Positions 7,600-43,135 of a stretch of DNA of 57,291 nt are shown here, in pieces. The position numbers were made by a program, and so were the translations under genes. The stretch is from positions 1-57,291 of the forward strand of contig JACQWH010000029.1 in the NCBI GenBank assembly GCA_016209345.1. Reading direction: 5' to 3'. Under the pieces are notes generated by a model. The model was not told where the DNA came from. It saw only the letters and a list, made by a program, of their open reading frames with translations, and made no database searches. The DNA comes from Candidatus Uhrbacteria bacterium. GTDB lineage: Bacteria; Patescibacteriota; Patescibacteriia; JACQRZ01. Numbering within the stretch: the first letter of the stretch is position 1; the number at the start of each line of letters is the position of its first letter.

Positions 7600-8184
7600 T
7601 TACTTCTTCGCGGAGGTGGCAAAATAATAGGTGTGCACCGAAAAACCTGCAACGTTGTTCGCCGGATCGAAAGAAAAGCTGTCTATCGTGGTGAGGCGGA
7701 TGTTCGACAAAAGCGCGGCGATGAGCCGCTGCAACCCGGCGTAGTCAACGTTGATAAATCGCAATGTAAGAGGGACCTCCCGTATTGCGCTTTTTGTGTT
7801 TTTTGCGTTTTCCGCGTTGTCTGAAATATCAATCACCTGCAAACCGACATCGACGTCTTTTGCTATTTTTTCAAACAGCGCGTACAGCGTGGGAATGTCT
7901 TTGTCTGTAGGAAGAATCATGGCAAGCGGATCCTGCTCGGCCTTTGCCGATGCGGTATAGAAGGCAAAAAGCCCCTTGAGGTCGTCACGGTATGCTTTCC
8001 TGCTTTTGAGCAATTCCTGTACGGACTCAACGTTGAGCGGCCCGCCCGCTATGTATTTTTGCAATTGGGGCTGAATGATATAGTAAAAAAACGAGACTAC
8101 AACCGCGGCAAAAATGCTCACGATGAGAAAGGGCGTAAGCGCCTCAAGGATACGAATGGATATTTTTTGCGTTTGGACCGTCAT
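7600..8184 (-). CDS. PilO-like pilus assembly protein
   Basis: The start was moved to MTVQTQ... to remove overlap with the upstream gene. N-terminal TM helix followed by a coiled-coil segment. Sits downstream of the pilM and pilN-like genes. Confidence 0.45.
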   Translation of the reverse strand: MTVQTQKISIRILEALTPFLIVSIFAAVVVSFFYYIIQPQLQKYIAGGPLNVESVQELLKSRKAYRDDLKGLFAFYTASAKAEQDPLAMILPTDKDIPTLYALFEKIAKDVDVGLQVIDISDNAENAKNTKSAIREVPLTLRFINVDYAGLQRLIAALLSNIRLTTIDSFSFDPANNVAGFSVHTYYFATSAKK

Positions 8185-8191
8185 AGAAATA

Positions 8192-8866
8192 TTATTGCGG
8201 GGGCGATACGGCAAAAAGCGCAGGGTCGATCTGGAGTGTGACATTGAAATCAACGCCGATGACATCACCCTGCTGGTCCAGGGACGATGCTATACCGCTA
8301 AACTGTACCGACGTGATGAATCCTTTCGACTCCTGAAACGCAAGGAGCTGGCGTCCGACATTGGTATAACTCGTGGTGCTTGCGGCAAGGGCGACCGTGC
8401 CGTCATCGGCCAGCGCAAGAGTGGAATAAAACACTTCAGGGAGCGTGTTTTTTTCAAGCGCGTTGAAAAAGGGCAGCACCGTCGTGTGCTCATCGAGCAG
8501 CGATTTTATCACGGAAAGCTTGTTTTGAAATGCGATAAGATTGGCGTTCTCCTTTTCCATCTTCGCGATTTCAATGTCAACGGAATCCAATTCCTGGCGG
8601 ATGACGGCAACCTTTTTCTGTTCCTGCGCCCCCCAGACAAACAGCACGCCGTATGCCGCAAGAGCGATTGCCAGCGCCATGACAAAACTGCCGACAAGCA
8701 AACCGATGTTCCGGCGGACAATGGCCCTGCTTGCCTCGCGCAGTACCTCTGACGTCATCAGATTCACTCCGACCGCCTTCTTTTTACCCATGCTGAAAAA
8801 ACCATGCTTCTTCTCTTCTGGTTTGTTTTTACCTTCTTGGGTGCTGTGTAGAAAATCGACTGCCAT
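8192..8866 (-). CDS. PilN-like fimbrial assembly protein
   Basis: 224 aa with a short cytoplasmic N-terminus, one TM helix and a coiled coil (IRQELDSVDIEIAKMEKENANL). Lies immediately downstream of pilM. Confidence 0.5.
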   Translation of the reverse strand: MAVDFLHSTQEGKNKPEEKKHGFFSMGKKKAVGVNLMTSEVLREASRAIVRRNIGLLVGSFVMALAIALAAYGVLFVWGAQEQKKVAVIRQELDSVDIEIAKMEKENANLIAFQNKLSVIKSLLDEHTTVLPFFNALEKNTLPEVFYSTLALADDGTVALAASTTSYTNVGRQLLAFQESKGFITSVQFSGIASSLDQQGDVIGVDFNVTLQIDPALFAVSPPQ

Positions 8867-8884
8867 AGAAAAATGAAAAGGTGT

Positions 8885-10003
8885 CTATTCGCGAAGCGCG
8901 AGCCCGATAGCGACGGAAAACTTCGGTCCTATTGTCTCCAACACCGGCTTGAGATCCGCGGGACACTGGATAAACGACCAGGGGTCGCCCACGAACACGC
9001 GAACATCAAGTGTCTGGGATAAAAACTCCGCTATGCCCGGCATGAGCGCGGTACCGCCGGTCAAAATAATCTTCTCGATAACGCCGGCGGCTTGGGCGGA
9101 GGGCGTAAGCGTATGACTTTTATACAGATCAATCGTGTAGCGGATTTCATGGACGACCGGCTCGAGCGCGGTCTTGATAATGTCGGGAATGCCGCCGGTG
9201 CCGGTAGCAGCGCCGTCTGTGCCCGACCGAATGCCGATATCCCGCTTGAGTTGTTCTGATCGTTTATCCGCGATATGCAAACTGTTGGAAATTGCCCGGG
9301 TAATCCCCGCGCCTCCGTGTTCCAAACTTCGTCCGAAAAACGGCACCCCGTTTTGCATAATGATAATATCCGTGACAGCCGAGCCAATCTCCACAATCAT
9401 AATCTCCCCGGGCTGTGACCCCACGATAGAGCGCGAGAGCGCGAACATCTCCGTTTCAATGCTCACCAGATTCAGCCCGCACATCCCGAATATCTCGGTA
9501 TATTTCTGCACCGTCTCCTTGGCCGCGCCGGTAATGAGTATTTTAAGCGTATCATTATTATTCGGGGATGGCGATGCTTGTTTTTTCCCGAAAGGAATTT
9601 TGAGAAGCGACTGCTCTTGTTTCGGGTTGAGGATTTTATAGTCAAGGATAATCTCATCAAGCGGCAGGGGAATAATTTTTTTCGCTTCCCAATGCACTGC
9701 CGAGTCAAGCTCATCGCCGGAAAGCGGCGGAACGGTAATCAGCGAGGTGAACACCGCGTATGTGGGAAGCGCGGCGGTTGCGCGTTTTGTCGTACAGCGC
9801 GCTTTTTTGACCACCGACTGTATCGCTTGTGCCGTGAGTCCCGAATCCTCTTTGCCAATGGTATGCAAATCGCGCTGAAAATCCTCAACAAACCCATACG
9901 TCACCAATGCATGGCCGTTTTTCACTCGCGCAACCTCCAGGACCTTGATGCTCGACGTACCGATATCGACACCGAGAATATTTGTTTCTTTCTTTTCAAA
10001 CAT
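8885..10003 (-). CDS. pilM: Type IV pilus assembly protein PilM (actin-like ATPase)
   Basis: N-terminal GVDIGTSSIKVLEV phosphate-1 motif and overall FtsA/PilM-like sequence. The ATG at 10003 is preferred over the TTG at 10021. Confidence 0.85.
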   Translation of the reverse strand: MFEKKETNILGVDIGTSSIKVLEVARVKNGHALVTYGFVEDFQRDLHTIGKEDSGLTAQAIQSVVKKARCTTKRATAALPTYAVFTSLITVPPLSGDELDSAVHWEAKKIIPLPLDEIILDYKILNPKQEQSLLKIPFGKKQASPSPNNNDTLKILITGAAKETVQKYTEIFGMCGLNLVSIETEMFALSRSIVGSQPGEIMIVEIGSAVTDIIIMQNGVPFFGRSLEHGGAGITRAISNSLHIADKRSEQLKRDIGIRSGTDGAATGTGGIPDIIKTALEPVVHEIRYTIDLYKSHTLTPSAQAAGVIEKIILTGGTALMPGIAEFLSQTLDVRVFVGDPWSFIQCPADLKPVLETIGPKFSVAIGLALRE

Positions 10004-12425: not shown

Positions 12426-14696
12426 ATGGAAACACTGTTAAAAAAATGCTCTGACAATCTTCTGCATATTTTCGTTCAGGCGGCAAAGCAGGCGGTTGCG
12501 CAAGGGAAGCGGACCATCGATCCGTGCCATCTTTTTTTCGGCCTTACCCATCCTGACGTGATGGCAGGAGCCGCAAACGGGGGTGCGGCAAGACCCGCGA
12601 AGAAAAAAGTGCGGATCGCCGCGCTGGATTTCTCGCCTCTCAGCGCGCATATTCTTACCCAGGCCGCTCTGTTGGCCGACTCATTGGACCACACAACGCT
12701 GGGCCCTGAACATCTGTTCGTCACGCTCTTGCACAGTACGAACCCGAGTGTCAAAAAAATTCTGAAAAAAAACGAGGTTGATACGCTGTCGCTCCAACAT
12801 CAGCTTTTGTCAATCGTCGACCACTCGACGAAAATACTTGACCTGCTGGACACGTTCGAGCCGCAAGGCGCGGAACATGCCGCGCATGACCACCACCATG
12901 CCCCGGCGCATGCGCCCGGCCCCCAGACCAAAGCCCCGTCTGCGCTCGCGTTTTTTTCCACCAATCTTACGGATGAAAAAAATGCCGCCCGACTCGATCC
13001 CGTCATCGGACGGGGTCCCGAGAGCGAACGCCTTATCCGCATCCTTGCGCGGCGCACAAAAAACAATCCCATTCTTGTCGGACCGCCCGGCGTTGGAAAA
13101 ACAGCTATTGTTGAGGGTCTCGCAAAACGCATTGCGCAGGGCGATGTTCCCCCGTATTTGGCAAACAAGCGCATTCACTCGGTCGATCTTGCTTTGCTCA
13201 TCGCCGGCTGTGCCTTTCGGGGCGAACTGGAAATACGCCTCAAGGCGCTCATAGATGAAGTGCGCGCAAATGAAAACGTTATTCTTTTCATCGATGAAAT
13301 ACATAATCTCGTCGGCGCAGGATCGTCAAATGGCTCAATGGATGTGGCAAATATCCTCAAACCCGCGCTCGCTCGAGGTGAGCTCCGCTGTATCGGCGCA
13401 ACGACCTTTGAAGAATACAAGCGGTATATCGAAGATGATTCCGCGCTTGAACGCCGGTTCCAGCCCATTATTATCAAACAGCCAAGCGCTGAGGAAACGC
13501 ACGCCATTCTCGAGGGCATTCTCCCCTCCTATGAACGCTATCACGGGGTGACGATCATGCCAGAAGCGCTTTCTCGCGCTGTGTATCTGACAGACCGCTA
13601 TGTGACGGAAAAATATTTTCCCGACAAAGCAATAGACGTTATCGACGAAGCGGCGGCGCAGGCAAAAATCGACCCTTCCCTGAATGCAACCATTACTCCG
13701 CAGATAATCGCCACCGTTCTTTCGGCAATGACAGGAGTCCCTCTTGCCGCGTTGAACCTGGAGGAAAAAGAAAAGTTTCTCACGCTTGAACACGCGCTTT
13801 CCCGCTCCATCGTCGGGCAGGATCATATAAAAAAGGAAGTGGCAAAAAGTTTTCAGCGCGCCTACGGCGGCCTGCGGGAAAAAGGGCGCCCGCTTGCATC
13901 GTTTCTCTTTCTCGGCCCCAGCGGCGTTGGCAAAACAGAATTGGCAAAAGTCATCGCGCAAGAGCTGTTCGGCGCCAATGGACTCATAAAACTGGACATG
14001 TCGGAATTTTCAGAGAGCTTTTCGGTCGCACGGCTTGTCGGCGCGCCAAGCGGCTATGTCGGATACAAAGAAGGAGGGCGGCTCACGGAGGGGGTTCGCA
14101 GAAATCCGCACTCGCTCATCCTCTTTGACGAAATCGAAAAGGCGCACCCGCGCGTGCTGAATGTATTGTTGCAAATTCTTGATGATGGCACTCTTACCGA
14201 CATGGCGGGACGCGCTGTTGATTTTTCCAATACCGCCATTGTCCTGACATCAAACATCGGATCGAGCGCATGGAACGGCAGTAGCTCGCTCGGATTTGCC
14301 GCCGGAAACGACACGCGCGCAAACGACACGCGCGGTCGCGTACTTGAAGAGCTCAAAAAAACCCTGAGCGCCGAGCTGCTCAATCGCCTCGATCACACCC
14401 TTGTCTTTCATCAGCTCGAAGAAAAAGATATCCGCGCCATTATTTGCCTACAACTCGAACGGCTCAGGGAAAAAGTATGCGGGATGAATGTCACTCTTTC
14501 ATGGAAGGACAGTGCGGTAAGCGCGCTCTGCAAAAACAGTGCGTTATCGGGTCACGGCGCGAGAGACATACGCCATCATATCGAAGAACATATCGAAGAC
14601 CTTCTTGCCGAATCGCTCCTCTCACGCAAAAATGACAATGAGGCGCTGCCGCTCACGCTCTCCTACCGCTCAGGGACATTTACCCTGCAACGATAA
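12426..14696 (+). CDS. ClpA/ClpC-type AAA+ chaperone ATPase (two AAA modules, no long middle domain)
   Basis: Contains a Clp-N repeat region, Walker A GPPGVGKTA and GPSGVGKTE, sensor motifs, and an LGF tripeptide (SSLGFAAG) resembling the ClpP-docking loop. Confidence 0.85.
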   Translation: METLLKKCSDNLLHIFVQAAKQAVAQGKRTIDPCHLFFGLTHPDVMAGAANGGAARPAKKKVRIAALDFSPLSAHILTQAALLADSLDHTTLGPEHLFVTLLHSTNPSVKKILKKNEVDTLSLQHQLLSIVDHSTKILDLLDTFEPQGAEHAAHDHHHAPAHAPGPQTKAPSALAFFSTNLTDEKNAARLDPVIGRGPESERLIRILARRTKNNPILVGPPGVGKTAIVEGLAKRIAQGDVPPYLANKRIHSVDLALLIAGCAFRGELEIRLKALIDEVRANENVILFIDEIHNLVGAGSSNGSMDVANILKPALARGELRCIGATTFEEYKRYIEDDSALERRFQPIIIKQPSAEETHAILEGILPSYERYHGVTIMPEALSRAVYLTDRYVTEKYFPDKAIDVIDEAAAQAKIDPSLNATITPQIIATVLSAMTGVPLAALNLEEKEKFLTLEHALSRSIVGQDHIKKEVAKSFQRAYGGLREKGRPLASFLFLGPSGVGKTELAKVIAQELFGANGLIKLDMSEFSESFSVARLVGAPSGYVGYKEGGRLTEGVRRNPHSLILFDEIEKAHPRVLNVLLQILDDGTLTDMAGRAVDFSNTAIVLTSNIGSSAWNGSSSLGFAAGNDTRANDTRGRVLEELKKTLSAELLNRLDHTLVFHQLEEKDIRAIICLQLERLREKVCGMNVTLSWKDSAVSALCKNSALSGHGARDIRHHIEEHIEDLLAESLLSRKNDNEALPLTLSYRSGTFTLQR

Positions 14697-14708
14697 CACT
14701 TATGGAGT

Positions 14709-15239
14709 ATGGAAGATACGTCTGAATTCCCCGACTCCCCTTCCTCGTCGCAATCGTCGCGTCGACAAATCATCCAACACATGAGTGTCGTCGAAAAGCA
14801 GATCCGCGAAGCCGAAAAAAAACAAAATCAGTTCAAGGATGAAGCGCGCGCCCACGAGCAGAAAAAAAATCTCTGCTCTGTTCTGGTTGGCGTTGCTATC
14901 GCAAACGACGGCATGACAGTACTCGCCGACGTCGTGAGCTTTGGGATGCTTGGGTCACTCACCGCTCCGACACCCGGCATACTGCGATTTATGGTATCGG
15001 CCTATGAACGAGAACAAAAGCCCGAACGCCTCCTGCGAACAGTTGCGGTGATGGGCTTGAAAGCAATACCGGTCATTAACGTCTTACCCGCGACTACATT
15101 TCTCATGGTTACCGATCTTGTTGAGGCAAGCGCAGACATGGACATGGCACGAAATAAAAAAGAGGCGCAGGAAAAGAAGATAAAAATTTTGCAGAATGAA
15201 TTGCGGCAGCTCCGAGTCGCGGGACAGCAAGCAGCGTGA
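14709..15239 (+). CDS. Hypothetical protein (coiled-coil ends, hydrophobic core)
   Basis: 176-aa ORF starting 12 nt after the Clp gene. Its last ~24 codons are duplicated in inverted orientation at 71..147. Confidence 0.55.
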   Translation: MEDTSEFPDSPSSSQSSRRQIIQHMSVVEKQIREAEKKQNQFKDEARAHEQKKNLCSVLVGVAIANDGMTVLADVVSFGMLGSLTAPTPGILRFMVSAYEREQKPERLLRTVAVMGLKAIPVINVLPATTFLMVTDLVEASADMDMARNKKEAQEKKIKILQNELRQLRVAGQQAA

Positions 15240-15262
15240 GGTGTGCACCATTTTTTGAAGTA

Positions 15263-15271
15263 TGGTATACT
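15263..15271 (+). promoter_or_regulatory. Candidate extended -10 box TGGTATACT
   Basis: The identical 9-mer occurs on the sense strand upstream of three other genes (20260..20268, 32063..32071, 49391..49399). Here it precedes the type-2 hairpin and the TolB-like gene. Confidence 0.35.
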
Positions 15272-15303
15272 GGAACAAATTCAGAAATTCATGCTCTGAT
15301 GAC

Positions 15304-15430
15304 TAAGCACCAAATCAAAAATCTTAAATCACAAATAAATCTGATCAAAATTCAAAACAATCAAAAAGCAGCGCTCTTTTGAATTTGAGATTTGGAACTT
15401 ATTTGGAGCTTGAGATTTTGGATTTGTAAT
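15304..15430. repeat. Type-2 AT-rich long hairpin element, copy X
   Basis: The left arm TAAGCACCAAATCAAAAATCTTAAATCACAAATAAATC... pairs imperfectly with the right arm ...GATTTGGAACTTATTTGGAGCTTGAGATTTTGGATTTG. Homologous in reverse orientation to 34396..34508. Confidence 0.55.
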
Positions 15431-15433
15431 TTA

Positions 15434-15483
15434 CCCCCCCCCCGAACCTACAACCTACCTCCTACCTCCTACCTCCTCCTTCT
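15434..15483 (+). repeat. C10 homopolymer followed by CCTAC-type short repeats in the 5' leader of the TolB-like gene
   Basis: CCCCCCCCCC (15434..15443) is followed by GAACCTACAACCTACCTCCTACCTCCTACCTCCTCCTTCT and then the ATG. Confidence 0.6.
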
Positions 15484-16719
15484 ATGCCCTGGAAACGCAT
15501 CCTCCTCATCATCGGATTCATTGTCGTCGTCATCCTGCTTGGCGCGTTGATTTGGTTTTTCTTTTTCCGTCCAACGCCAATCGCCATATCTCCTGTTCCG
15601 ACCCCGCCCACGCCGAGCCCGCTCCCCATACCCGGCCCGTATATCCCTTCGCCCGGGCCGCTCCCAACACCGACTCCGACACCCTCCCCCCTTCCTGAAC
15701 AGCCACAACTCCCAAAAACCGCCGAGGAAGCAAAAGGAGGGCCCGTCCAGACAACGCAGATTCAGCCGGATGCCAACATCGCACCAGCCCGTTCCTCTGA
15801 CGGCTCAAATGTCGTGACGTTCGACTCCTATACGGGAACATTCCACCGCATAAAGCCGGACGGCACTTCCGAACAGATCAGCGATCAAACATTTTCCGGC
15901 GCCACGAACGTGACGTGGTCGCCGAACGCGGACAAGGCAGTCATTGAATTTTTGGACGATACGAAAGTGGTGTATGATTTTTCGGGAAAAAAGCAGATTG
16001 CAACGCTTCCCAAACATTGGGAATCGTTTAACTTCTCTCCGGATGGAGAAAAAATTGCGTTCAAAAGCATCGCGTCAGACCCGGACAACAGATGGCTTGC
16101 AATAGCAAATGCCGACGGATCGGGCGGCACGCCTATCGAGCCGCTTGGTAAAAAATCCGAACAATTCACACCCCTCTGGTCGCCCTCCAACCAGATTATC
16201 GGTCTCTTTGAAGAAGGACTGGACGGCAATCGAAAAATGTTGTACTTCATCGGACAGAACAACGAAAATTTTAAGTCGGTGACTGTCGAAGGACGTGATA
16301 TCCAGGCGCAGTGGTCCCCGCTCGGTACCCAACTCCTGTACAGCGGCTATTCATCGCGCGCTGGCTTTCGTCCCGAATTATGGATTGTCGACGCGCTCGG
16401 GAGTACGATTGGAAACAATCGCAGAAAGTTTGACATCCAAACATGGGCGGAAAAATGCACATTTGCCAACAACGAGACGCTCTACTGCTCGGTACCAAAA
16501 ACACTTCCCGAGGGCGCGGGGCTTCTTCCCATTATCGCCGAACGCGACAGTACCGGAGAGGCCATTTATAAAATCGATTTGACGACAGGCGAGAAAAGAA
16601 AAATTGCCGAACCGGACGCAGCGCTTATTCTCACCAATCTTGTCGTCTCGACCGATCAGCAACAGCTGTACTTCACCGATAAATATTCCAAGAAACTCTA
16701 TACGATACAACTCCAATAA
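15484..16719 (+). CDS. TolB-like beta-propeller protein with N-terminal anchor and Pro-rich linker
   Basis: PD40-like repeats (WSPNADKAVIEF, FSPDGEKIAFKS, WSPSNQIIGLF, WSPLGTQLLYSG) follow a TM helix and a PTP-rich linker. Confidence 0.6.
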   Translation: MPWKRILLIIGFIVVVILLGALIWFFFFRPTPIAISPVPTPPTPSPLPIPGPYIPSPGPLPTPTPTPSPLPEQPQLPKTAEEAKGGPVQTTQIQPDANIAPARSSDGSNVVTFDSYTGTFHRIKPDGTSEQISDQTFSGATNVTWSPNADKAVIEFLDDTKVVYDFSGKKQIATLPKHWESFNFSPDGEKIAFKSIASDPDNRWLAIANADGSGGTPIEPLGKKSEQFTPLWSPSNQIIGLFEEGLDGNRKMLYFIGQNNENFKSVTVEGRDIQAQWSPLGTQLLYSGYSSRAGFRPELWIVDALGSTIGNNRRKFDIQTWAEKCTFANNETLYCSVPKTLPEGAGLLPIIAERDSTGEAIYKIDLTTGEKRKIAEPDAALILTNLVVSTDQQQLYFTDKYSKKLYTIQLQ

Positions 16720-16733
16720 ATGCAAATAAATTA

Positions 16734-16892
16734 CTTTGAATTACGAAACTACCAATAATGCCCCACGTTGTCATTCCCGCGAAGGCGGGAATCCAGTCCA
16801 TAAAATGATTTTTCTTGTTGGCTGGATCCCGGTCCCCGATCCAGTCGGGGACAGGCCCTCACGCGCCGGGATGACAGTTTCGTAATTCAAAG
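16734..16892. mobile_element. Type-1 MITE-like element (complete copy)
   Basis: Terminal inverted repeats CTTTGAATTACGAAAC / GTTTCGTAATTCAAAG. Internal hairpins TCCCGCGAAGGCGGGA and GGATCCCGG..CCGGGATG. No ORF. Copies at 1..40 and 35845..36018. Confidence 0.65.
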
Positions 16893-16921
16893 AAATTAAC
16901 CAAATTAGGTTAATTATTACC

Positions 16922-18130
16922 ATGAATATATCTCGTTCAGTTCACTTTATTGTCATTCTTGCAATGGCCGTCACCGCCCTTTTTGCTATCCCCGCCTTTG
17001 CCGCGCCACCTGCCGGTACCGGCAGCGTGCGCCTCTCCGGTGATACATTTCCGGATTTTACATTTCAGATACCGATTGGAAATATCGCCGTCATTAACAG
17101 CGATGAAATCGTCAACGGAACGGCAATCGCCATCTATATCGGCATCATCTATCAGTGGGCGGTGGCATTTGCGGCCGTATTGGCTGTCCTTGCGTTCACC
17201 TATGCCGGCGTGCTATGGCTTATTGCCGGCGGGGATAGCGGCAAAGTGACGGAATCGAAAAAAATCATGGGCAACGCGATCATCGGACTCCTGCTCGCGC
17301 TGGGGTCGTATGTGTTTCTCAACGCGATCAATCCAAATCTCGTTCATTTCCAGCCGCTCAAAGTACCGGCTGTCAAAACCATTTCCCTGAATCTTACCCC
17401 CGCGTCAATCACTTCCGGCGGCATCACGGCCACCTACGATGTCGGACATTTTACCGCTCTTGGATTTCCGGCGCCAAACACGGAGGATGACCCCGGTAAA
17501 AAAATCCCGCTCAAGGGTGAAGTTCTCAACAGATGGCAGACATTGCAGCCGCTCGCCATGAAAGCGGCCCAGGCAACCGGCACCGACGTTGGCTTTATCG
17601 GCATGTGGCCCCTCTATGAGAATGGATTTGATACATTTATGGACAACTGCCAAGATACGGACACCAATCAAAATACGCCGTGCAGCGCATGGGGAGACGG
17701 TTGGCAGGTTGGCCTTGGCGTTCATCCGGGCAATATGCTTTGGGCATACGATGGCGGCTTTACCGCGATGTACGGCGATGCAAGCGATGCCACCGTACAG
17801 AAAGTAGGACAAAGCGTTCTTGATGCCGCGAGAGCCGCGGGCAAACCGATTACCATTGTTTCCAATCCATTTCCAGCCGCTTCTCTTGCAACAACGATTC
17901 AGAGCGCAAAAAACGGAGATCAACAGGCCCGACTCCTTATCGCGACTCTTACGAAAGACCCTGCGCTGGGACTGTACCTTGTTGGCGCGCATTTCGGCTC
18001 ACGCGATCTGGGTGGCCGTGGAGCAGATCTTGCGCGCGTGATGGATATGTGGGATAAAAAGGAGAAGGATGGCTACTACCACCCCCAGCGTATCAGTAAT
18101 TATATTAAAGCGGTCTATGACGCAAAATAA
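16922..18130 (+). CDS. T4SS-pilin-like (TrbC/VirB2-like) domain fused to a C-terminal soluble domain (possible glycosidase/VirB1-like)
   Basis: Signal peptide, then two hydrophobic helices with the GDSGKVTESKK loop (IYQWAVAFAAVLAVLAFTYAGVLWLIAGGDSGKV...LLLALGSYVFLNAINPNLV), typical of CPR/Gram-positive T4SS pilin-like proteins. The ~230-aa C-terminal domain is unassigned. Confidence 0.6.
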   Translation: MNISRSVHFIVILAMAVTALFAIPAFAAPPAGTGSVRLSGDTFPDFTFQIPIGNIAVINSDEIVNGTAIAIYIGIIYQWAVAFAAVLAVLAFTYAGVLWLIAGGDSGKVTESKKIMGNAIIGLLLALGSYVFLNAINPNLVHFQPLKVPAVKTISLNLTPASITSGGITATYDVGHFTALGFPAPNTEDDPGKKIPLKGEVLNRWQTLQPLAMKAAQATGTDVGFIGMWPLYENGFDTFMDNCQDTDTNQNTPCSAWGDGWQVGLGVHPGNMLWAYDGGFTAMYGDASDATVQKVGQSVLDAARAAGKPITIVSNPFPAASLATTIQSAKNGDQQARLLIATLTKDPALGLYLVGAHFGSRDLGGRGADLARVMDMWDKKEKDGYYHPQRISNYIKAVYDAK

Positions 18131-19145
18131 AAACAAAACGGCAATAAAAAAATGCGTTCTCGCTTTTTTTGTATCGGCGGTTTTGGCTGGCGTTCTTTTT
18201 TCATCTTCGGTCAATGCCGCCGACAACATCACCGTCACGCTTCAGATCCCGATTATCGGAGAAACGAACGTTCCCGTATGCCAGACGACGATCGGACCGG
18301 GTGGAAATGAAATTCTTGAATGCACCGGCATTGCCCGATATATCGGTATTGTATATCAGTGGGCGGTCGCGTTTGCGGCCGTTTTGGCTGTCCTTGCGTT
18401 CACCTATGCCGGCGTGCTATGGCTTATTGCCGGCGGGGATAGCGGCAAGGTGACGGAATCGAAAAAGGTTATGGGCAACGCAATCATCGGCCTCCTTCTT
18501 GCGCTGGGGTCCTACGTGCTTCTCAATGCAATAAACCCGAACCTTGTCGGGTTTGACGTCCTTCGACTTCCGGGAATCGCAAAAATTGAGCTTGATCTTA
18601 AACAGGTCGAGGACCACGGAGAGGAAACCGGCGATACCGGAGGTGTCGGGGGAATAGAAATAGCCGGCGATGGCAACCTTGATCGCCTCGCCGGATTGGT
18701 GCGCGATAACAAGCAGTTTGGCCTTGAACCAAGCCACTGTCTTGGCTGGGTCCGAAGAGCGCTTGTCCACATCTACGGTGAAGCAAAGTTCGCCGGATCG
18801 CCGCTGATAGGATCGGGCGCGTATCCGGGCCTCGTTGCGAAAAAATTTCTGGATGCAAGCAAGTTCACCGTCGGACTCCAGGGCGTTAAAAATGGTGATG
18901 TTGTTTTTATGCAGACGCCAGGTTCGCATCTTATCGCCATCGGTCGTGATACGGATTTACCGGGATATTCTGTCACCCATATCGGCATTTACTATAATGG
19001 TTCTGTGTATCACCAATTCGGAAAAGCCCTGCGCATAAGCAAAGTCCAAAAAACCCCCTCCGTGGCAAATGAAGACAATGTATTTACTGAGTCGGAAGGC
19101 GCGAAAAAGCTAAAGGTCATCGGCTACGGAAGCATGGGGCTTTAA
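18117..19145 (+). CDS. T4SS-pilin-like domain fused to a CHAP/NlpC-P60-like peptidase domain
   Basis: Same pilin-like module as the upstream gene. The C-terminal domain has a candidate Cys (PSHCLGWV) and His (VTHIGIYYNG) arrangement. The start was moved to MTQNKNK with a signal peptide. Confidence 0.6.
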   Translation: MTQNKNKTAIKKCVLAFFVSAVLAGVLFSSSVNAADNITVTLQIPIIGETNVPVCQTTIGPGGNEILECTGIARYIGIVYQWAVAFAAVLAVLAFTYAGVLWLIAGGDSGKVTESKKVMGNAIIGLLLALGSYVLLNAINPNLVGFDVLRLPGIAKIELDLKQVEDHGEETGDTGGVGGIEIAGDGNLDRLAGLVRDNKQFGLEPSHCLGWVRRALVHIYGEAKFAGSPLIGSGAYPGLVAKKFLDASKFTVGLQGVKNGDVVFMQTPGSHLIAIGRDTDLPGYSVTHIGIYYNGSVYHQFGKALRISKVQKTPSVANEDNVFTESEGAKKLKVIGYGSMGL

Positions 19146-19153
19146 ATTATCGT

Positions 19154-19221
19154 ATGGCGACAACAATTTTCATCTGCTCGCAGTGCGATGCGCAAAGCCC
19201 AAAATGGGCCGGACGCTGTTT
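19154..19221 (+). pseudogene. Orphan duplicate of the radA 5' end
   Basis: ATGGCGACAACAATTTTCATCTGCTCGCAGTGCGATGCGCAAAGCCCAAAATGGGCCGGACGCTGTTT encodes MATTIFICSQCDAQSPKWAGRCL, against RadA MALSVYICSNCDAQSPKWAGRCL. Homology stops at 19221. Confidence 0.7.
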
Positions 19222-19253
19222 GTCAGGAAATAGTGGCAAGTCCGATTTTCTAC

Positions 19254-19931
19254 TCACATGCCGAGTTGATGGCTTCGAACGGCCTCGGTGATTGTCTTTT
19301 TGATTTTTTTCCACGTCACCGCTCTATCAAAAAGTTTTACTCTGTCAATATCGTCATCTTCCTCCGCGTCATTAAAATAGAGTAGCCCCCGAAGAAAAAA
19401 GAAGTGGTTATACATCGGATATTTTTCTAATCCGAAGCGGATCATCTCATCCAGTGAAAAAATGTGTAATAAATAATATATATCAACAAAATCTCGATGA
19501 CGACCACGTTGCGCTATTGCGATGAGCTTCATTGCCGCAATATCCTGCAACGATGCAACCAATACCCCCTGCATAGGTATTGGCGATGCAACAAGCGGAT
19601 ATTCATAATAGAAACAGCTCAAGTGAATATCCGGTTTTGCCAAAAGATCAAAATTATCCTTTATGTCACGCGTTATCTCAATCTGCCAACGTTCTGCCAT
19701 GTACGAATAAAAGAGTTTGCTCAATGTTCCTTTAGCAAAGTGGCGTTGCCGATAAAAATCAAAATCTACTGACGTCCGATGGCCAATCTGTAGTGCGAGC
19801 GCAGTCCCTCCGGCAAGATACATGCCCGTCTTTTTCGTCCACGTAAGCTGTGAAAAAAAACGAGCCCGTGCCGGTGAAAGGACACTGTCAATATAACATG
19901 TTTTCTGTTGTTTTCTGATCATCGTCTTCAT
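19254..19931 (-). CDS. Nucleotidyltransferase AbiEii/AbiGii-family toxin-like protein
   Basis: Has the N-terminal motif LAGGTALALQIGHRTSVDFDFY characteristic of the AbiEii family. 225 aa and AT-rich. Confidence 0.6.
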   Translation of the reverse strand: MKTMIRKQQKTCYIDSVLSPARARFFSQLTWTKKTGMYLAGGTALALQIGHRTSVDFDFYRQRHFAKGTLSKLFYSYMAERWQIEITRDIKDNFDLLAKPDIHLSCFYYEYPLVASPIPMQGVLVASLQDIAAMKLIAIAQRGRHRDFVDIYYLLHIFSLDEMIRFGLEKYPMYNHFFFLRGLLYFNDAEEDDDIDRVKLFDRAVTWKKIKKTITEAVRSHQLGM

Positions 19932-20251
19932 TTACTCATCTTTATTCGCGGCGGAGGAAGCCCTGTTGGCGTGAGAGAAAAAAGAGCTCGCGCATAATCT
20001 CCCTTCGATGGTTGGACATTATATATGGTGGTCCAATAAACAAGCGCATCCTCGCGCCATATTCCACGCGCTGGATATTTGATATACTTTATGAGTGTTC
20101 TCCTGGAAAATGTCCTTAATGCCCATTGAATCTGCTTCCATGTTCCGTAATTTAAAATTTGCGGAATAATGGTTCCTGCGTGCTTTCGCGCATCTATAAG
20201 CGAAAGGTCATACGACCAAAGCGCTGATTGTAAAAATTTTGGTACCGCCAT
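19928..20251 (-). CDS. Small partner protein of the AbiEii-like gene (putative antitoxin)
   Basis: 107 aa, with a 4-nt ATGA overlap onto the downstream toxin-like gene. The LWSYDLSLID...NYGTW...W motif recalls a family often found upstream of AbiEii-like genes (from memory, unverified). Confidence 0.5.
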   Translation of the reverse strand: MAVPKFLQSALWSYDLSLIDARKHAGTIIPQILNYGTWKQIQWALRTFSRRTLIKYIKYPARGIWREDALVYWTTIYNVQPSKGDYARALFSLTPTGLPPPRIKMSK

Positions 20252-20270
20252 ATACTATTAGTATACCATA
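20228..20270. promoter_or_regulatory. Divergent overlapping promoters (radA on +, toxin cassette on -)
   Basis: Plus strand: TTGTAA, 17 nt, then TATACT (20251..20256). Minus strand: TGGTATACT (20260..20268), 8 nt before the ATG at 20251. The two -10 boxes form the palindrome TATACTATTAGTATA. Confidence 0.4.
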
Positions 20271-20287
20271 TTTTAAGCAAAAAATCA

Positions 20288-21685
20288 ATGGCTCTTTCTG
20301 TCTATATTTGTTCAAACTGCGACGCGCAAAGCCCTAAATGGGCCGGACGCTGTTTGGAATGTGGCGGATGGGGAACGTTGTCGCAAGGCGTCGCTGACGG
20401 ACAAAAGAAAGCGACATCAACCGCTGCTCCAGCCGATGCTACCCCCTTCTCGCAAATCTCTCACGAAGATGTCCCGCGTCGCTCAACCGGCATTGCCGAA
20501 GTTGATCAGGTGCTTGGCGGCGGCATTGTTCCGGGGAGCTTGATTCTGCTCGGAGGAGAGCCGGGGATCGGGAAGTCAACTCTGCTTGGGGAAATCGCTT
20601 TGAAAATGGGGTCAGGCACAAATTCTCTTCGCGAAATTGAGCCAGACCCCATTTTCTACTGTTCGGGTGAAGAATCGGCACAGCAAGTCAAAATGCGGTT
20701 TGACCGCCTGATGTCATCCCGAGCGCAGTCGAGGGATCTGCTCTTCATCGGCGAAACGAATTGCGAAAAAATTTGTAGCGCACTCCGCCATCACAAGCCG
20801 GCGCTTGCCATTGTTGACTCCATACAAACGATCGCGTCATCAGATATTCCATCTGAAGCGGGAAGTATCGCACAAGTGCGCGCGTGCACTGTCAAACTCC
20901 TTGAAGTTGCAAAACAGGAAAACATCCCAATCATTATTACCGGCCACGTCACGAAAGAGGGTGGCGTTGCGGGTCCCAAAACACTCGAACACTTGGTAGA
21001 TACCGTCCTGTATCTTGAGGGTGATGCGAGCCAGTATTTTCGCCTTCTCAAAACAGTAAAAAACCGCTTCGGCTCAACCAACGAAATAGGTGTCTTTGAA
21101 ATGACGGGTCAAGGACTTGTCGAGGTAAAAAATCCATCGGAACTGTTTCTTTCGTCGGACAGCGAACACGCGGCGGGCACTGCGACCACCTGCGTCGTGG
21201 AAGGATCGCGCGCCTTTCTCGTTCCCATTCAAGCATTGACGAGCAAAACCTACTTTGGGTATCCTCAAAGAAAAAGCATCGGCATCGATGCAAACCGGCT
21301 GGGACTTCTTGTCGCGGTGCTTTCAAAGCGACTCGGCGTCAATCTCGGCGATCAAGATATTCACGTCAACGTTGTCGGCGGATTGAAAATCAGCGAGCCG
21401 GCAGCTGACTTAGCGGTGTGCGCCAGCATCTTGTCCTCATACAAAAACAAAATGGTGTCTGGTTCCATTTCTTCAAAAATGGTACCTGACACCATTTTGC
21501 CGACTATTTTCTTTGGCGAAGTGGGTCTCACCGGCGAAGTGCGGCCCGTGAGCCATACCGAGAAACGACTCAAGGAGGCGGAAAAGCTCGGCTTCAAGGT
21601 TGCGTATATTCCAAAACAATCAAAGAAAATCTCAACAAGTATTCAGCTTGTTGAGATTAAAAACATTCGCGATCTCGAAATTTAG
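20288..21685 (+). CDS. radA: DNA repair protein RadA
   Basis: N-terminal zinc ribbon (CSNCDAQSPKWAGRCLECGGWG), Walker A GEPGIGKST, the KNRFG motif and a C-terminal Lon-like domain. Confidence 0.95.
   Translation: MALSVYICSNCDAQSPKWAGRCLECGGWGTLSQGVADGQKKATSTAAPADATPFSQISHEDVPRRSTGIAEVDQVLGGGIVPGSLILLGGEPGIGKSTLLGEIALKMGSGTNSLREIEPDPIFYCSGEESAQQVKMRFDRLMSSRAQSRDLLFIGETNCEKICSALRHHKPALAIVDSIQTIASSDIPSEAGSIAQVRACTVKLLEVAKQENIPIIITGHVTKEGGVAGPKTLEHLVDTVLYLEGDASQYFRLLKTVKNRFGSTNEIGVFEMTGQGLVEVKNPSELFLSSDSEHAAGTATTCVVEGSRAFLVPIQALTSKTYFGYPQRKSIGIDANRLGLLVAVLSKRLGVNLGDQDIHVNVVGGLKISEPAADLAVCASILSSYKNKMVSGSISSKMVPDTILPTIFFGEVGLTGEVRPVSHTEKRLKEAEKLGFKVAYIPKQSKKISTSIQLVEIKNIRDLEI
20602..20656 (+). repeat. 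In-frame palindromic insertion element P1 (55 nt)
   Basis: GAAAATGGGGTC...GACCCCATTTTC has 12-nt terminal inverted repeats. It is 100% identical to P3 in recG and encodes (K)MGSGTNSLREIEPDPIF just after the RadA P-loop. Confidence 0.8.
21448..21499 (+). repeat. In-frame palindromic insertion element P2 (52 nt)
   Basis: CAAAATGGTGTC T GGTTCCATTT CTTC AAAATGGTACC T GACACCATTTTG is a nested palindrome. It encodes KMVSGSISSKMVPDTIL in the RadA Lon-like domain, where E. coli RadA is about 12 aa shorter (from memory). Confidence 0.7.
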
Positions 21686-37415: not shown

Positions 37416-37450
37416 TTAGGGGTTAGGGGTTAGGGGTTAGGGGTTAGGGG
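37416..37450. repeat. (TTAGGGG)x5 tandem heptamer
   Basis: Five perfect units. The sense strand (CCCCTAA)n supplies the last codons and the stop of the VirB4-like gene (..QTPNP-stop). Confidence 0.9.
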
Positions 37451-40400
37451 TCTGCCTCTTCTCATCTTCAAACTCCTTCTTTGCCGCCTCTATTTCCAGG
37501 AGTTGGCGCGGATCGGTGGTGATAAGCTGGTCTTCGGAATACGATGCAACCACCTTGATGGCAACATGTTTTGACCCGGCAAAGAAAATCCCTTCGCCCG
37601 GCCCTCCTTCTAATAATAGATACTTCTCACCCTCTGTCAATAAGAAGGTCTTTTGTACCGCATCGATCGCTGCCGATGATTGTTTGAGCAGAAGTTGAAT
37701 GGCCGAATTTGTCAGGATGGCGCGGCCGTATTGCGAGTTGAGAAAATCATTAACGTCCTGCGTAATGGTCGTCACTCCCAGATAATATTTGCGGCACCGC
37801 TTGGCAAGCGCAAAAATAAATCTGGCTGAGTCCTCATGCTGCATGAGCCACCACGCCTCGTCGATGACCAAAATCCTGCGCTTGATTTGAGATCGCACGA
37901 CATTCCAGATGTAGTTGATGATGGTGTAGATTGCGATAGGGCGCAGCTCGTCTTCCAAGTCGCGCACGGAGAACACGACAAGCTGGTTTTTTGTCTCGAC
38001 ATTCGTCGGCTTATTGAGCAGCCCCGCAAACGTCCCTTCGGTATATTTTTTCAGCTTTCCGGAAAGTCCCGCGCCGCCCTCCATGCCATCGAGCACATCC
38101 TGCAAATCGGTCAGTGTTGGGGGCTCAACGCCGGCGGACAGATCGGTTTGCGGCGTAATGTCTTTCTTCGCGTAGGCCTCCAGGAGCGCGCGATCAATAG
38201 TCGAATCCTCTTCTTGAGAAAACGCTCCCAGCATCAGCCGCATCAGCCCCTTGAGCGTAATGACCGCACTGCGAATAATGTCGGCGGTCGATACTTGCTC
38301 GCCAACCGGCCGCGGCAGATCAAACGGATTGATGCGACTTGTCGAGGAAAGAGATATGTTGACATAGGTACCCCCCACCGCATCGCAAAGATGCTTATAT
38401 TCGCGCTCCGGGTCTATCACCATAATCTCGGTTCCCATCATCATCGAGCGTAAAATTTCCAATTTTATGGCAAACGAGTTGTGTACAAAAAGTCCGCCGT
38501 GTCCTGCAAGAAACACTTCATTGTCGACGGTAAGATCGTACACGTACCGATCGGTATTTTTTATTCTTTTTATTGACGCTATTGGATCCCATATCAGATC
38601 GGCATCTGCAAGATTCTTCAGCTTTGCAATGAGCGCCTTCACGCGAGGAAGGCGAGACGCAATGCGCTGGTATTCGGATAATACATGGTGCGCAGCACTG
38701 CGCAACCGGCCGTATCGCATGTCGCCCCTCTCGCAAAGCCCCGTACGAAGAGAGCGATCGAAATCCTTCATCGAAAGGTTAAGCTGTCGAAATCCATAAT
38801 GAACAGCGTGCTTTACTTGTTCAAAATCTATGCTGTTGTACGAACTATATGACCACGCCCTCAATACATTTGTCGCGTACGGTGATACCCTCTGCTGCTT
38901 TATGTTGTTCCAGGTATGCCCCATCTCTTTCCAAAGAATGCCGTTTGTATTCTTATCGCAAACCCCCATGCCGATAACGGATGACATGTGGGGAAGCGCG
39001 GCTAACACCTCAAGCTCGTCTCTCAATACCTCAAAACGCCGCACCGCCTCATTCATCTGATCAATGACGGCATGGAGCTTCTCGCGCGATGGCTGATACG
39101 ACCCGTTTTTCAGCTCAATACAGTCCTGCATGCCGCGCAGATGAGATGGCAAAAGTTCATAGAGCTCCTGAAAAACGGTTTGGACGGGAATGGTGTCACT
39201 ATTTGTGTTGCTCTTCAAACCGAGAAGCCGCTTCAGCTTTGTATTCTTGCGTTGTGTGACAAATCCTATCGACTCAGCGTAGCGTGAAAGGTTTTCTTGG
39301 CCTGAAAGCGATAGCTGCCAATATGTTCTTCGCGTCTTCCTTGCGGTGTTGGTTGCATATTTATTTTTCTTCGACAAACGAACATGAATACCAAAACGAA
39401 GAAATACATATGCGAGATCGGAAACAAGCGCTTTTGATTTTGAAGTGGCGGTGACGGCATGGTTCTCGGCACACCCGTCTCCTTCAAAATAGGCCTTGAG
39501 AAATTCTGACAGTATGGACGATGACGCCCCAAACAATACTCCGGGAATTCGTTTGTCCGCTGATGTTTTTCCAATACCAAGCGCTTTAATATATTCCACG
39601 ATTACCCGACCGTGAATAACAAATGAGCCATCATCCTTGCGACGATAAAAAGAAAATCCTAGAGTGTTCAGACAATGGATAATATCGCTAACCACCGGTT
39701 TGTCCTCGTTTGAAATAAGAATATACCGTTCACGAATCGCGCCTTCACTCACAATATACCCCATCAATCGAGCTAATTCTGCCGTGAGATGCATAATGGG
39801 CGGCAGTGATGTCCCCTTCAAGCTGGTTGTCTTTGAACACAACCGAACTTCGGAATAGACGGCATGCGGATCAATGCCAAGATACGCAAGTATTTTCGAG
39901 AAATACCCAAGCGGAATCAGGCGACCGGTCCTATAGTTGTACCGGTAGCGATCAAAACGAGGATCGATGATCGCCCCTGCAAGGCGCGCGTAGTTCCTGG
40001 CTAGTACATACTGCCCGCCATCTATGTAGATTCTGCTATTATTCTCCAGCACTGCATATATGTCTTGCGTCGTGGTCGGATGTTCCGACTCCGACAACTC
40101 TCGTGCGAGAGGAATTGATTCGCCCGCGGAAATATCGGCACTCTTGTCTGCAACGACGACTCCATTGCGCAACACGAGCATATTATGGTCGCCCGTCACA
40201 GTAATTTCGCGCCCGCTCTTCATGGTAAACACGAAGAGATCGTCCGGCGCTTCTTTCCGAGCGGCGATGCTCACCGGGCTCCATTCGCCTTTTAATTCTT
40301 TATTAAAAGAATAGACCTGAATACCCGGATCAACGACACCTTCAAGATCATCATCGATCTTCTCAAAAACATGCTTTCTGGCGAGCGCGTCGATGGCAGG

Positions 40401-42117: not shown

Positions 42118-42158
42118 CAGGTGTCAGGTTGCAGGTGTCAGGTTGCAGGTGTCAGGTT
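42118..42158. repeat. (CAGGTGTCAGGTTG) x ~2.9 tandem 14-mer
   Basis: Direct tandem copies. The sense strand encodes the C-terminal KPDTCNLTPAT-stop of the four-helix-bundle gene. Confidence 0.85.
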
Positions 42159-42516
42159 TATTACCGAGTTTTGTTATGAGGGTATTCAAAATTTTCATAA
42201 CCTCTATGAGTATTGTGTCAACATCATTATACTGGAGGTTCACACCAAAAGGCAATTTCTTTACGACGGCTATCTGTGTTTGCAGTTCAGCGCCCGATCC
42301 ATATGAAATATAAAGAAAGTGCCTATAATCCTTCCGCGTACCCCTCATACTTCCCTCAGCTATGTTTGACGGAATAGAAACTGCCGCTCGTTTCATTTGA
42401 GATGCTAGTCCGAAAACCTCTTCCCGGGGAAAATGACTCGTAAGTTCGTAGATTGCCAGAACCAGCTCAATACCCTTCTTCCATACTATCAAATCCTGAA
42501 ATGACTGTACTTTCAT
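42124..42516 (-). CDS. Four-helix-bundle protein (23S rRNA intervening-sequence protein family), copy 1
   Basis: FQDLIVWKKGIELVLAIYELTSHFPREEVFGLASQMKRAAVSIPSNIAEG...GSGAELQTQ matches the signature of this family. Confidence 0.8.
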   Translation of the reverse strand: MKVQSFQDLIVWKKGIELVLAIYELTSHFPREEVFGLASQMKRAAVSIPSNIAEGSMRGTRKDYRHFLYISYGSGAELQTQIAVVKKLPFGVNLQYNDVDTILIEVMKILNTLITKLGNKPDTCNLTPAT

Positions 42517-42529
42517 AAATTAATTTTTC

Positions 42530-42655
42530 TGATCACTGAAACCTGATCACTGAAACCTGATCACTGAAACCTGATCACTGAAACCTGATCACTGAAACCT
42601 GATCACTGAAACCTGATCACTGAAACCTGATCACTGAAACCTGATCACTGAAACC
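42530..42655. repeat. (TGATCACTGAAACC)x9 perfect tandem 14-mer
   Basis: 126 nt made of nine identical units. Each unit contains the palindrome TGATCA (with GATC) and TGA triplets on both strands. Confidence 0.95.
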
Positions 42656-43110
42656 TAAAACAACTCCGTCTCCTTCTCCTTTGCTTCACCCATATATGCC
42701 CCTCCGGTATCGACAATAAGCGCGAGATCGGCGAGCCGATGCCCGCTCACGCGCGGCGGTAAGGGCGGCGGGGTTTCCTTCAAGGCCTTTTCCTCCTTCG
42801 TCTCTTTTGCCGTGTGAATGACGCGGCGCACATCCTTTCTCCATACGCGCAGTGTCGGCCGGCTTGCCGTGCGCAGCGTATTGAGGAGAAAAAAATGGAA
42901 GGGCTGTCCGTTGATCCGCACAAACCCAAGCACGCCCGCGCATCCCCCGACAAGAATGGCGACAAAAATGAAGGCGGTCAGGTCTGTTGTTTTGTACGCA
43001 ACGAACAACAGCGCGCAGGCAACGAGGATGATCACAAACTGCCGAACGGTAATCGGCCCGAGTATGCGGTCTTCATTTTCAATAAATTGCGGAACGGTTA
43101 TTTGGTCCAT
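42655..43110 (-). CDS. PrgI-family (VirB3-like) T4SS membrane protein
   Basis: The start was moved to MDQITVPQFIENEDRILGPITVRQF, followed by two TM helices, the pattern typical of PrgI-family proteins. Confidence 0.65.
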   Translation of the reverse strand: MDQITVPQFIENEDRILGPITVRQFVIILVACALLFVAYKTTDLTAFIFVAILVGGCAGVLGFVRINGQPFHFFLLNTLRTASRPTLRVWRKDVRRVIHTAKETKEEKALKETPPPLPPRVSGHRLADLALIVDTGGAYMGEAKEKETELF

Positions 43111-43135
43111 GTCAACAAGAATTAAGAAACAAGAA

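Follow-up and report, generated by a model that had tools for sequence, protein, structure and literature searches.

Why would a bacterium join the membrane hairpin of a type IV secretion system (T4SS) pilin to domains that resemble cell-wall hydrolases? The question is raised by two tandem genes, here called A and B, on a 57,291-nt stretch of Candidatus Uhrbacteria DNA (contig JACQWH010000029.1 of assembly GCA_016209345.1, positions 1 to 57,291 of the forward strand), which we refer to as the window. Its source is a groundwater-dwelling, ultrasmall member of the Uhrbacteria/Patescibacteria, whose 1.06-Mb genome is 93% complete; the window corresponds to contig 22.

A large part of bacterial diversity belongs to the Patescibacteria. 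Cultivated members live on other bacteria, and in one tested species, Ca. Southlakia epibionticum, the T4SS and its VirB2-like pilin array are essential (PMC12857230, PMC12102498). Patescibacterial T4SSs are MPF-FATA-like, and VirB2-like pilins are widespread, often in arrays of 2-11 genes; most genomes that carry such pilins have no detectable VirB1, whose role might be taken by other glycosidases (PMC12102498). We suggest here, with a probability of about 55%, that A and B encode a membrane-tethered glycosidase-plus-peptidase pair that acts in the VirB1 role.

Architecture of the gene pair

The two genes and their parts, all on the + strand, are as follows:

16922..18130, +: gene A, a 402-aa open reading frame (ORF) with a signal peptide, a VirB2-like hairpin and domain X; the same architecture is seen in orthologues of 383-400 aa
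18117..19145, +: gene B, 342 aa, with a signal peptide, a VirB2-like hairpin and an NlpC/P60-like domain
16922..17002, +: predicted Sec-type signal peptide of gene A, residues 1-27 (ending in AIPAFA, followed by APPAG); AlphaFold2 (AF2) helix 6-20
18117..18218, +: predicted Sec-type signal peptide of gene B, residues 1-34 (ending in SSSVNA, followed by ADN); AF2 helix 4-29
17120..17329, +: pilin-like helical hairpin of gene A, residues ~67-136, with the loop GGDSGKVTESKK (AF2 helices 67-101 and 106-136; PF18895; hhalign)
18324..18533, +: pilin-like helical hairpin of gene B, residues ~70-139 (AF2 helices 70-104 and 109-139; PF18895)
17399..18127, +: domain X of gene A, residues 160-402, all-alpha and unannotated (AF2, conserved columns, profile search)
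18669..19142, +: NlpC/P60-like domain of gene B, residues ~185-342, with a GDVVFM motif (hhalign, conservation, Foldseek)
18738-18740, 18978-18980 and 19011-19013, +: Cys208, His288 and His299 of gene B, aligned to NlpC/P60 by hhalign

The original prediction had described a signal peptide and a two-helix pilin module in both genes, and this description was upheld by the 402- and 342-aa ORFs, the AF2 helices and PF18895 scores around the family cut-off. Both signal peptides were assigned by eye, from sequence only. The two proteins are 58% identical over their N-terminal 157 residues, and BLASTP found nothing common beyond. The shared part includes a conserved LQIPI.G stretch between the signal peptide and the hairpin, whose two long hydrophobic helices are joined by the short Lys-rich loop.

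Genes A and B are co-oriented and probably co-transcribed; with its start at 18117, B shares 14 nt with the 3' end of A. B has two candidate starts: an ATG at 18069, which would give a 358-aa product, follows an AAGGAG box at a distance of 4 nt, whereas the ATG at 18117 yields the 342-aa protein (MTQNKNK...) whose N-terminus agrees with those of the B orthologues. A Shine-Dalgarno sequence was not recognisable before A, nor before B if its start is 18117. A palindrome-rich non-coding element (16734-16892) occupies the space between a beta-propeller gene and A, ending 29 nt before the A ATG. In a scan for promoters and terminators, the number of sites was not above that in shuffled sequence.

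The N-terminal hairpin resembles VirB2-type pilins

Against PF18895 (T4SS_pilin; curated cut-off 26.6 bits), gene A scored below the cut-off both by hmmscan (22.0 bits) and in a six-frame search (26.2 bits), and gene B scored below it by hmmscan (23.7 bits) and above it in the six-frame search (27.0 bits). Paralogues on related contigs, whose module is 70% identical, exceeded the cut-off with 27-32.5 bits. When 15 A/B-type modules were compared by hhalign with eight short pilins of the genome's own array (PF18895/TrbC-positive members), the profiles matched at 98.5% (E 4e-15, 73 columns). The predicted local distance difference test (pLDDT) score of the hairpins in the AF2 models of A and B was only 50-70. 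On profile comparison, the A/B hairpin is homologous to the VirB2-like T4SS pilins of the same genome, in line with the VirB2/T4SS_pilin-type module that had been predicted.

The six-frame search gave 11 PF18895 matches in the genome, namely A, B and a nine-gene tandem array on contig 32 (3546-9388, - strand), which is the main pilin array. Three array genes were scanned; two carry the hairpin at the C-terminus of proteins of 211-244 aa, and the third (8117-9388) encodes 422 aa with the hairpin N-terminal, at residues 59-123, followed by ~300 residues without a Pfam match. A solute-binding protein gene and a signal-peptide-peptidase-like gene adjoin this array.

A and B share with the VirB2-like pilins described in Patescibacteria the signal peptide, the two helices, the charged loop, the occurrence as tandem paralogues and the profile homology (PMC12102498, PMC12857230), and at about 15 ORFs from virB4 they lie inside the range of ±20 coding sequences used for such pilins in PMC12102498. 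The arrangement typical of VirB2-like pilins (PF18895, PF04956), a signal peptide and then two hydrophobic helices with a short charged loop, is found in both. However, the published proteins are short with a C-terminal hairpin, as in the contig 32 array, whereas A and B, at 402 and 342 aa, depart from the 'small, essentially hairpin' form by carrying the hairpin N-terminally, ahead of globular C-terminal domains of 160-240 residues. The published arrays are also very divergent internally (mean 25% identity), while the modules of A and B are nearly identical to each other. By eye, the module is ~90% identical across proteins whose C-terminal heads are only 45% identical.

VirB2 adopts an N-out, loop-in, C-out topology. 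Given a cleaved signal peptide and a Lys-rich loop, the same topology is expected for A and B, and their C-terminal domains would therefore lie outside the membrane, in an extracytoplasmic position.

The C-terminal domain of gene B is NlpC/P60-like

The C-terminal domain of gene B had been predicted to be CHAP- or NlpC/P60-like from the motifs SHCLGWV and THIGIYYNG. Both motifs are present, and Cys208 (HCLGW), GDVVFM and His288 (THIGIYY) are invariant in the B family; position 299 is His in six of seven B-family sequences and Asn in one. When compared by hhalign with an NlpC/P60 alignment built from 30 PF00877-positive loci/sequences of other Patescibacteria, domain B matched at 93.8% (E 1.7e-7, 85 columns), with the Cys, GDxVF, His and His aligned, while SLT, the negative control, gave P 0.88. 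A local NlpC hidden Markov model (HMM) also matched two B-family members at E < 1e-3. In the low-confidence AF2 model Cys208 opens helix 208-220, and His288, at the start of its strand, and His299 lie on consecutive strands. It is the NlpC/P60 alternative that these comparisons bear out: domain B is predicted to be a cysteine peptidase of the NlpC/P60 superfamily with Cys208-His288-His299 in place, and it would cleave peptidoglycan peptide stems.

The top four Foldseek matches of model B were all to the peptidoglycan hydrolase Cg1735 of Corynebacterium glutamicum (8AUC/8AUD, PF00877), although the matches were weak (E 0.04-0.46) and the model is of low confidence. The likeness covers the Cys at a helix start, the GDxVF strand, the His on a strand and the third His. 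Domain B differs from the PF00877 endopeptidases in that hmmscan against Pfam gave no match even at E <= 1, and in some 20 additional residues that separate the GDVVFM strand from the His. The B family is small, with 9 clusters in 5.8 billion proteins; a wider search with the B-domain profile retrieved only this same family, and the closest named homologue comes from a Candidatus Uhrbacteria metagenome-assembled genome. For both C-terminal domains, Pfam and NCBIfam searches yielded nothing beyond weak, fortuitous matches, among them Peptidase_S26 (E 0.25) and an StxB model (E 0.16).

Domain X of gene A is a rare, unannotated family

Two putative hydrolase heads had been proposed for the pair. 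The second was supported as NlpC/P60-like; the first was not, as domain X had no Pfam, NCBIfam or PDB sequence match, whether searched with single sequences, with family profiles or, for PDB, with a profile of 27 diverse sequences, and its comparisons with the SLT and SLT_3 profiles were not significant. The best matches in the PDB sequence searches with the C-terminal domains, isochorismatase (E 0.065) and mL42 (E 0.039), were judged to be due to chance. A search of 201 genomes from the phylum for PF13702 (Lysozyme_like, CwlT type) found none. Ten small remote homologues of X belong to no Pfam family, so that no transitive family link could be made.

The domain profile collected 127 representative clusters from 1.84 billion proteins, most of them in proteins of 500-1450 residues. 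Among the 52 of these that were scanned, co-occurring domains were SLT (7), T4SS_pilin (4), Amidase_3 (3), and M23, M15_4, Amidase_2, VanY and CHAP (2 each); single-chain proteins with X and CHAP, or X and NlpC, exist elsewhere. With local HMMs, the architectures in 144 proteins (the B family included) were hairpin-X in 14, X-SLT in 8 and hairpin-SLT-X in 1.

One Glu, two Cys and one Asp do not vary among 52 X sequences. The 27 diverse sequences keep Cys243, Cys254, Gln262, Gly264 and Asp346 throughout, with Glu233 and Trp229 almost fully conserved; Trp261, Tyr284 and Asp222 are invariant among close relatives only. The AF2 model of X is confident (pLDDT about 85-95) and all-alpha; Glu233 closes helix 223-234, and short strands at 243-267 are followed by seven helices. 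When model A was compared with PDB structures by Foldseek, E. coli MltE accounted for all 13 of the best matches, and MltC and goose-type lysozyme came next. The family 1 lytic transglycosylases/GH23 (MltE, MltC, goose-type lysozyme, PF01464) that provide these matches resemble X in a Glu at a helix end, a small beta region in which WQxG resembles GLMQ, and a helical lobe after it, and an SLT fusion occupies the same locus slot in relatives; an hhalign alignment, itself not significant, sets Glu233 on the catalytic Glu of SLT. X differs from GH23 in the lack of sequence or profile significance, in Asp346 as a second acid and in a disulphide-type Cys pair, both of which lie outside the SLT motifs.

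On these results X is not assigned to GH23/SLT. The active-site-like conservation, the direction of the weak fold matches, the domain company and the position in the locus nevertheless lead us to put roughly even odds on X being a glycan-cleaving enzyme of lysozyme-like or lytic-transglycosylase-like type; X is probably wall-active as well as domain B. It constitutes a new, rare and unannotated domain family and a candidate for a new peptidoglycan hydrolase.

Some features of the wider X family may be recorded here. In many non-pilin X proteins (P0012, P0064, P0039, P0045 and ~25 larger ones) X is followed by a Gly/Ser linker, after which comes a ~100-residue, possibly Ig-like region that recurs in the family; DUF11 matches occurred in 6 of 52 members. 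The P0012 C-terminus looked CHAP-like by eye, which Pfam did not support, and an iterative local search drifted to linker and Ig-like regions. Two X copies stand in one frame in proteins of ~1160-1210 aa (G068:C1:288505-290616 and G095:C8:1305-3386), from Patescibacteria genomes of another family, of 1.3-1.4 Mb. A Foldseek comparison of model A with viral structures returned only tape-measure-like helices and was uninformative.

Gene conversion within the pilin module

As had been noted, positions 17180-17244 and 18384-18448 are identical to the base over 65 nt while their flanks have diverged. This core is enclosed in a direct repeat of 241 nt (17103-17343 and 18307-18547) with 84% identity overall, which has only these two copies in the 1.06-Mb genome. 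The conversion tract is wider than the core:

17150..17263, +: gene-conversion tract, gene A copy, 38 codons (exact-identity core 17180-17244; dN 0, dS 0.20)
18354..18467, +: gene-conversion tract, gene B copy (exact-identity core 18384-18448)

A run of at least 65 identical positions had p = 3.5e-5 when alignment columns were shuffled, and a run of 21 identical codons had p = 0.001 when synonymous states were shuffled among codons for the same residue. A and B are free of synonymous differences over 21 consecutive codons and differ frequently at the 3' end of the module; by the NG86 method, the central 38 codons gave a nonsynonymous rate (dN) of 0 and a synonymous rate (dS) of 0.20, against a dS of 1.92 for the distal 27 codons. 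Over a 90-nt core the paralogues A and B are 97% identical, whereas their identity to the corresponding modules is 69-84% in a same-genus genome and 68-73% on a third contig.

Could the identity have arisen by selection at the nucleotide level (RNA structure, codon preference), or as an assembly artefact, with no conversion at all? The tract encodes a peptide that hardly varies across the family, and part of the identity is thus owed to protein-level constraint. Such constraint is insufficient by itself, however, because orthologues with nearly the same peptide are only 68-84% identical in nucleotides. The contrast in dS between the centre and the distal part of one module also argues against this explanation, as does the same-genus genome, whose own A and B cores are 74% identical and lack such a tract; an artefact is hard to reconcile with two intact genes in the order seen in relatives. 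We consider it very unlikely. The shuffles, the dS contrast and the orthologue comparison all point to a recent conversion of ~115 nt between A and B, and the gene conversion postulated in the original prediction gains support from each of them.

Relative to the same-genus genome, the core shares more with the B orthologue (83-84%) than with the A orthologue (69-71%), which tentatively suggests transfer from B to A. The flanks of the module are 76-79% identical within the genome, versus 50-75% to most of the orthologous or paralogous modules compared, and older rounds of homogenisation are therefore suggested as well.

The locus in relatives

Upstream of A and B lie a PilM-containing cluster, a ClpB/ClpC-like ATPase gene, a gene for a small membrane protein and one for a TolB-like beta-propeller protein; downstream, an AbiEii toxin cassette is followed by radA. 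The frame from the clpC-like gene to radA (12426-21685 in the window; loci L001, L004 and L018 in relatives) is conserved, while the genes inside it vary: two to six hairpin-fusion genes and bare pilins, and in the window the AbiEii cassette. The 5' flank of radA acts like a variable island.

A same-genus genome has five tandem hairpin fusions of 327, 458, 385, 340 and 374 aa, in which the 385-aa A orthologue and the 340-aa B orthologue are adjacent and the 374-aa protein is B-like by its C-terminal sequence; a short pilin gene is present there on the other strand. Another contig carries, in order, a 372-aa fusion, a 350-aa hairpin-SLT fusion (PF01464, E 2.9e-18), a B orthologue and radA. In the same-family genome G007, the beta-propeller gene is followed by an A orthologue, a 330-aa hairpin fusion and a bare pilin. 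The position before the peptidase fusion is thus taken by X in some loci and by SLT in others. Two further genomes of the family carry hairpin-SLT fusions, with a hairpin-NlpC/P60 gene adjoining one of these, and a hairpin-SLT_3 fusion was found in a genome of another family; in all, hairpin-SLT, hairpin-SLT_3 and hairpin-NlpC/P60 fusions were observed in five other loci. Comparisons of orthologues gave dN of 0.10-0.36 with dS saturated, which indicates purifying selection.

The remaining fusions carry other heads. Those of 327, 458 and 372 aa (L001 3529-5893, + strand; L004 842-1960, + strand) have the same hairpin, and their C-terminal domains, which are unlike X and domain B, had no Pfam match; they are possibly more unannotated heads. 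The 330-aa fusion (L018, G007:C8, 4231-5223, + strand) looked LAS/M15-like by eye from FHNPAGRAADI … HKDHLHVAV, an assignment that Pfam did not support.

A proposed split, pilin-tethered pair in the VirB1 role

Several VirB1-like hydrolases of monoderm T4SSs are bifunctional, namely TraG of pIP501, PrgK of pCF10, CwlT of ICEBs1 and TcpG of pCW3. These MPF-FATA enzymes are membrane-anchored and extracytoplasmic, and combine a glycan-cleaving domain with a CHAP or NlpC/P60 domain, the latter of the same peptidase superfamily as domain B. We propose that A and B would provide the same two activities in split form. Both products would be exported via Sec and, after cleavage of the signal peptide, be held in the cytoplasmic membrane by the VirB2-type two-helix hairpin, with the N-terminus outside, the loop GGDSGKVTESKK inside and the C-terminus outside, so that the C-terminal domains would sit on the outer membrane face, beside the peptidoglycan. 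There, domain B would cut peptide stems with its Cys208-His288-His299 peptidase, and X would cleave glycan strands, using Glu233, the Cys243-Cys254 loop, the WQxG strand and Asp346. Between them the two genes would thus supply a glycosidase and a peptidase, and the pilin module would place these enzymes in the pilin pool or at the site of T4SS assembly. The wall that is opened would be the cell's own, and possibly also that of the host. We attribute the near-identity of the hairpins to strong purifying selection together with recent conversion between the tandem copies, and a homogenised hairpin under divergent heads fits a shared assembly or docking interface.

In the TraG/PrgK/CwlT type, a single polypeptide with an ordinary N-terminal anchor is encoded within the T4SS operon. 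A and B, in contrast, are two genes with one head each and a pilin hairpin as anchor, flanked by the clpC-like and beta-propeller genes and radA, and the putative glycosidase belongs to an unannotated family that is neither SLT nor a known muramidase. A gap of ~18 kb to the T4SS-like operon had been reported, and we measured 18.3 kb, or about 15 ORFs by our own count, from gene B to the VirB4-like gene. The suggestion that other glycosidases might fill the role of VirB1 in these bacteria (PMC12102498) would make A/B-type fusions candidates for it.

Several observations weigh against this proposal. The MltE matches of model A are weak (E 0.28-1, probability 0.16-0.60, template modelling (TM) score 0.36-0.44 on the target), and hhalign gave P of only 0.035 and 0.15 for X versus SLT and 0.22 versus SLT_3, in a set-up in which the positive control, SLT versus SLT_3, reached 91%. 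X stands beside SLT in ten proteins, one of which is the hairpin-SLT-X protein, and because the two occur jointly X may do something other than cut glycan. Model B as a whole is of low confidence (mean pLDDT 59.7, with 70-85 in the domain). The pair lies outside the T4SS operon, between the clpC-like gene and radA, at a site of variable cargo. Finally, X and B are rare: X was present in 3 of 41 relatives and B in 2 of them, and phylum-wide X occurred in 4 of 301 genomes, so the T4SS machine cannot generally depend on them.

Alternative readings

The same parts can be read in other ways, which differ in what the hairpin and the heads are taken to do. If X is not an enzyme at all, but a peptidoglycan-binding, ligand-binding or regulatory domain, gene A would encode a pilin-tethered adhesin or adaptor and B alone would be catalytic. 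No hydrolase family could be linked to X by sequence at a significant level and, in larger proteins, X usually stands beside a recognised catalytic domain, as binding modules do. Yet the invariant Glu and Asp in 52 sequences and the residues conserved in the 27-sequence set are those of an apparent active site, gene A and its orthologues encode no extracytoplasmic domain other than X, X replaces SLT beside the peptidase gene, and the best fold matches, despite weak E-values, are all to lytic transglycosylases or lysozymes; we regard a non-enzymatic X as possible but rather doubtful. A T4SS-independent role, in which the hairpin would be a mere anchor of pilin ancestry and the pair would be housekeeping autolysins that remodel the cell's own wall in growth and division, has in its favour the location between the clpC-like gene and radA, outside the T4SS operon. 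The genome also makes peptidoglycan, as it encodes Ddl, as well as a separate SH3-SLT protein, and a canonical NlpC/P60 gene was not found elsewhere in it. However, core division enzymes would not be expected to show so patchy a distribution even within the family, and the anchor is specifically a T4SS pilin module, conserved beyond what a generic anchor would need (~90% by eye, against 45% for the heads), which leads us to consider this role distinctly improbable.

At the other extreme, the hairpins could be true pilin subunits that are extracted by the T4SS and co-polymerised with the bare pilins of contig 32 as minor or tip subunits, in a fibre that would display glycosidase and peptidase and drill into the wall of the host bacterium. 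The homology of the module to VirB2-like pilins, the presence of nine short-pilin genes in an array of their own, from which a shaft could be built, and the homogenisation of the module while the heads diverge, as for a shared polymerisation interface, are all consistent with such a fibre, and an action of the Patescibacterial T4SS pilus on the host has been the subject of speculation in reviews (PMC12857230). No pilus is known from any such system, however, and the hairpin confidence in the AF2 models is only 50-70. Furthermore, judging from the structures of the F- and T-pilus, a helical fibre might not accommodate VirB2-type subunits that bear globular heads of 17-27 kDa. We find a polymerised, armed fibre unlikely, and prefer to see the hairpin as an anchor or targeting device; surface display against a host wall would be a further step. 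More generally, the T4SS 'pilin' might be a modular display scaffold with interchangeable wall-degrading heads (SLT, NlpC/P60, LAS-like, X), its hairpin kept identical by conversion for co-assembly, in a fibre or platform assembled by the T4SS to breach the host wall, and X would then also be a new family of peptidoglycan glycosidases. In our opinion this generalisation is improbable.

Relation to known systems

Pilins, NlpC/P60 peptidases and VirB1-like hydrolases are already known, and the parts are not new. What is apparently new is their covalent combination, the layout as a split pair outside the T4SS operon, domain X, and gene conversion restricted to one module. Pilin-hydrolase fusions are not mentioned in the survey of Patescibacterial T4SSs (PMC12102498) or in the review (PMC12857230), the literature considered being open-access papers and preprints.

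Our preferred reading, a pilin-tethered pair in the VirB1 role, would offer a concrete and testable tie between 'pilins' and wall breaching, as a pilin hairpin would be covalently joined to wall-cutting enzymes. Such a design may explain how the wall is opened for the T4SS in bacteria without a recognisable VirB1. The locus also adds X, a rare, unannotated family whose fold is predicted with confidence and in which an active site is likely, and a clear case of concerted evolution limited to the assembly module shared by two proteins that are unrelated elsewhere.

The T4SS-like cluster of the window

The T4SS-like cluster includes a VirB4-like gene at 37437-41306 and a PrgI/VirB3-like gene at 42655-43152. 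The former (- strand) is a VirB4/TraG-P-loop ATPase ORF of 1289 aa that is split by an intein carrying a LAGLIDADG-type homing endonuclease (matches to Intein_splicing at E 3.5e-15 and to LAGLIDADG_3 at E 3.4e-19). The same cluster also contains, at 42124-42516 (- strand), a '23S rRNA-intervening sequence protein' gene (PF05635, E 1.6e-34), which is flanked by a gene for a 239-aa unknown protein and by the PrgI/VirB3-like gene.

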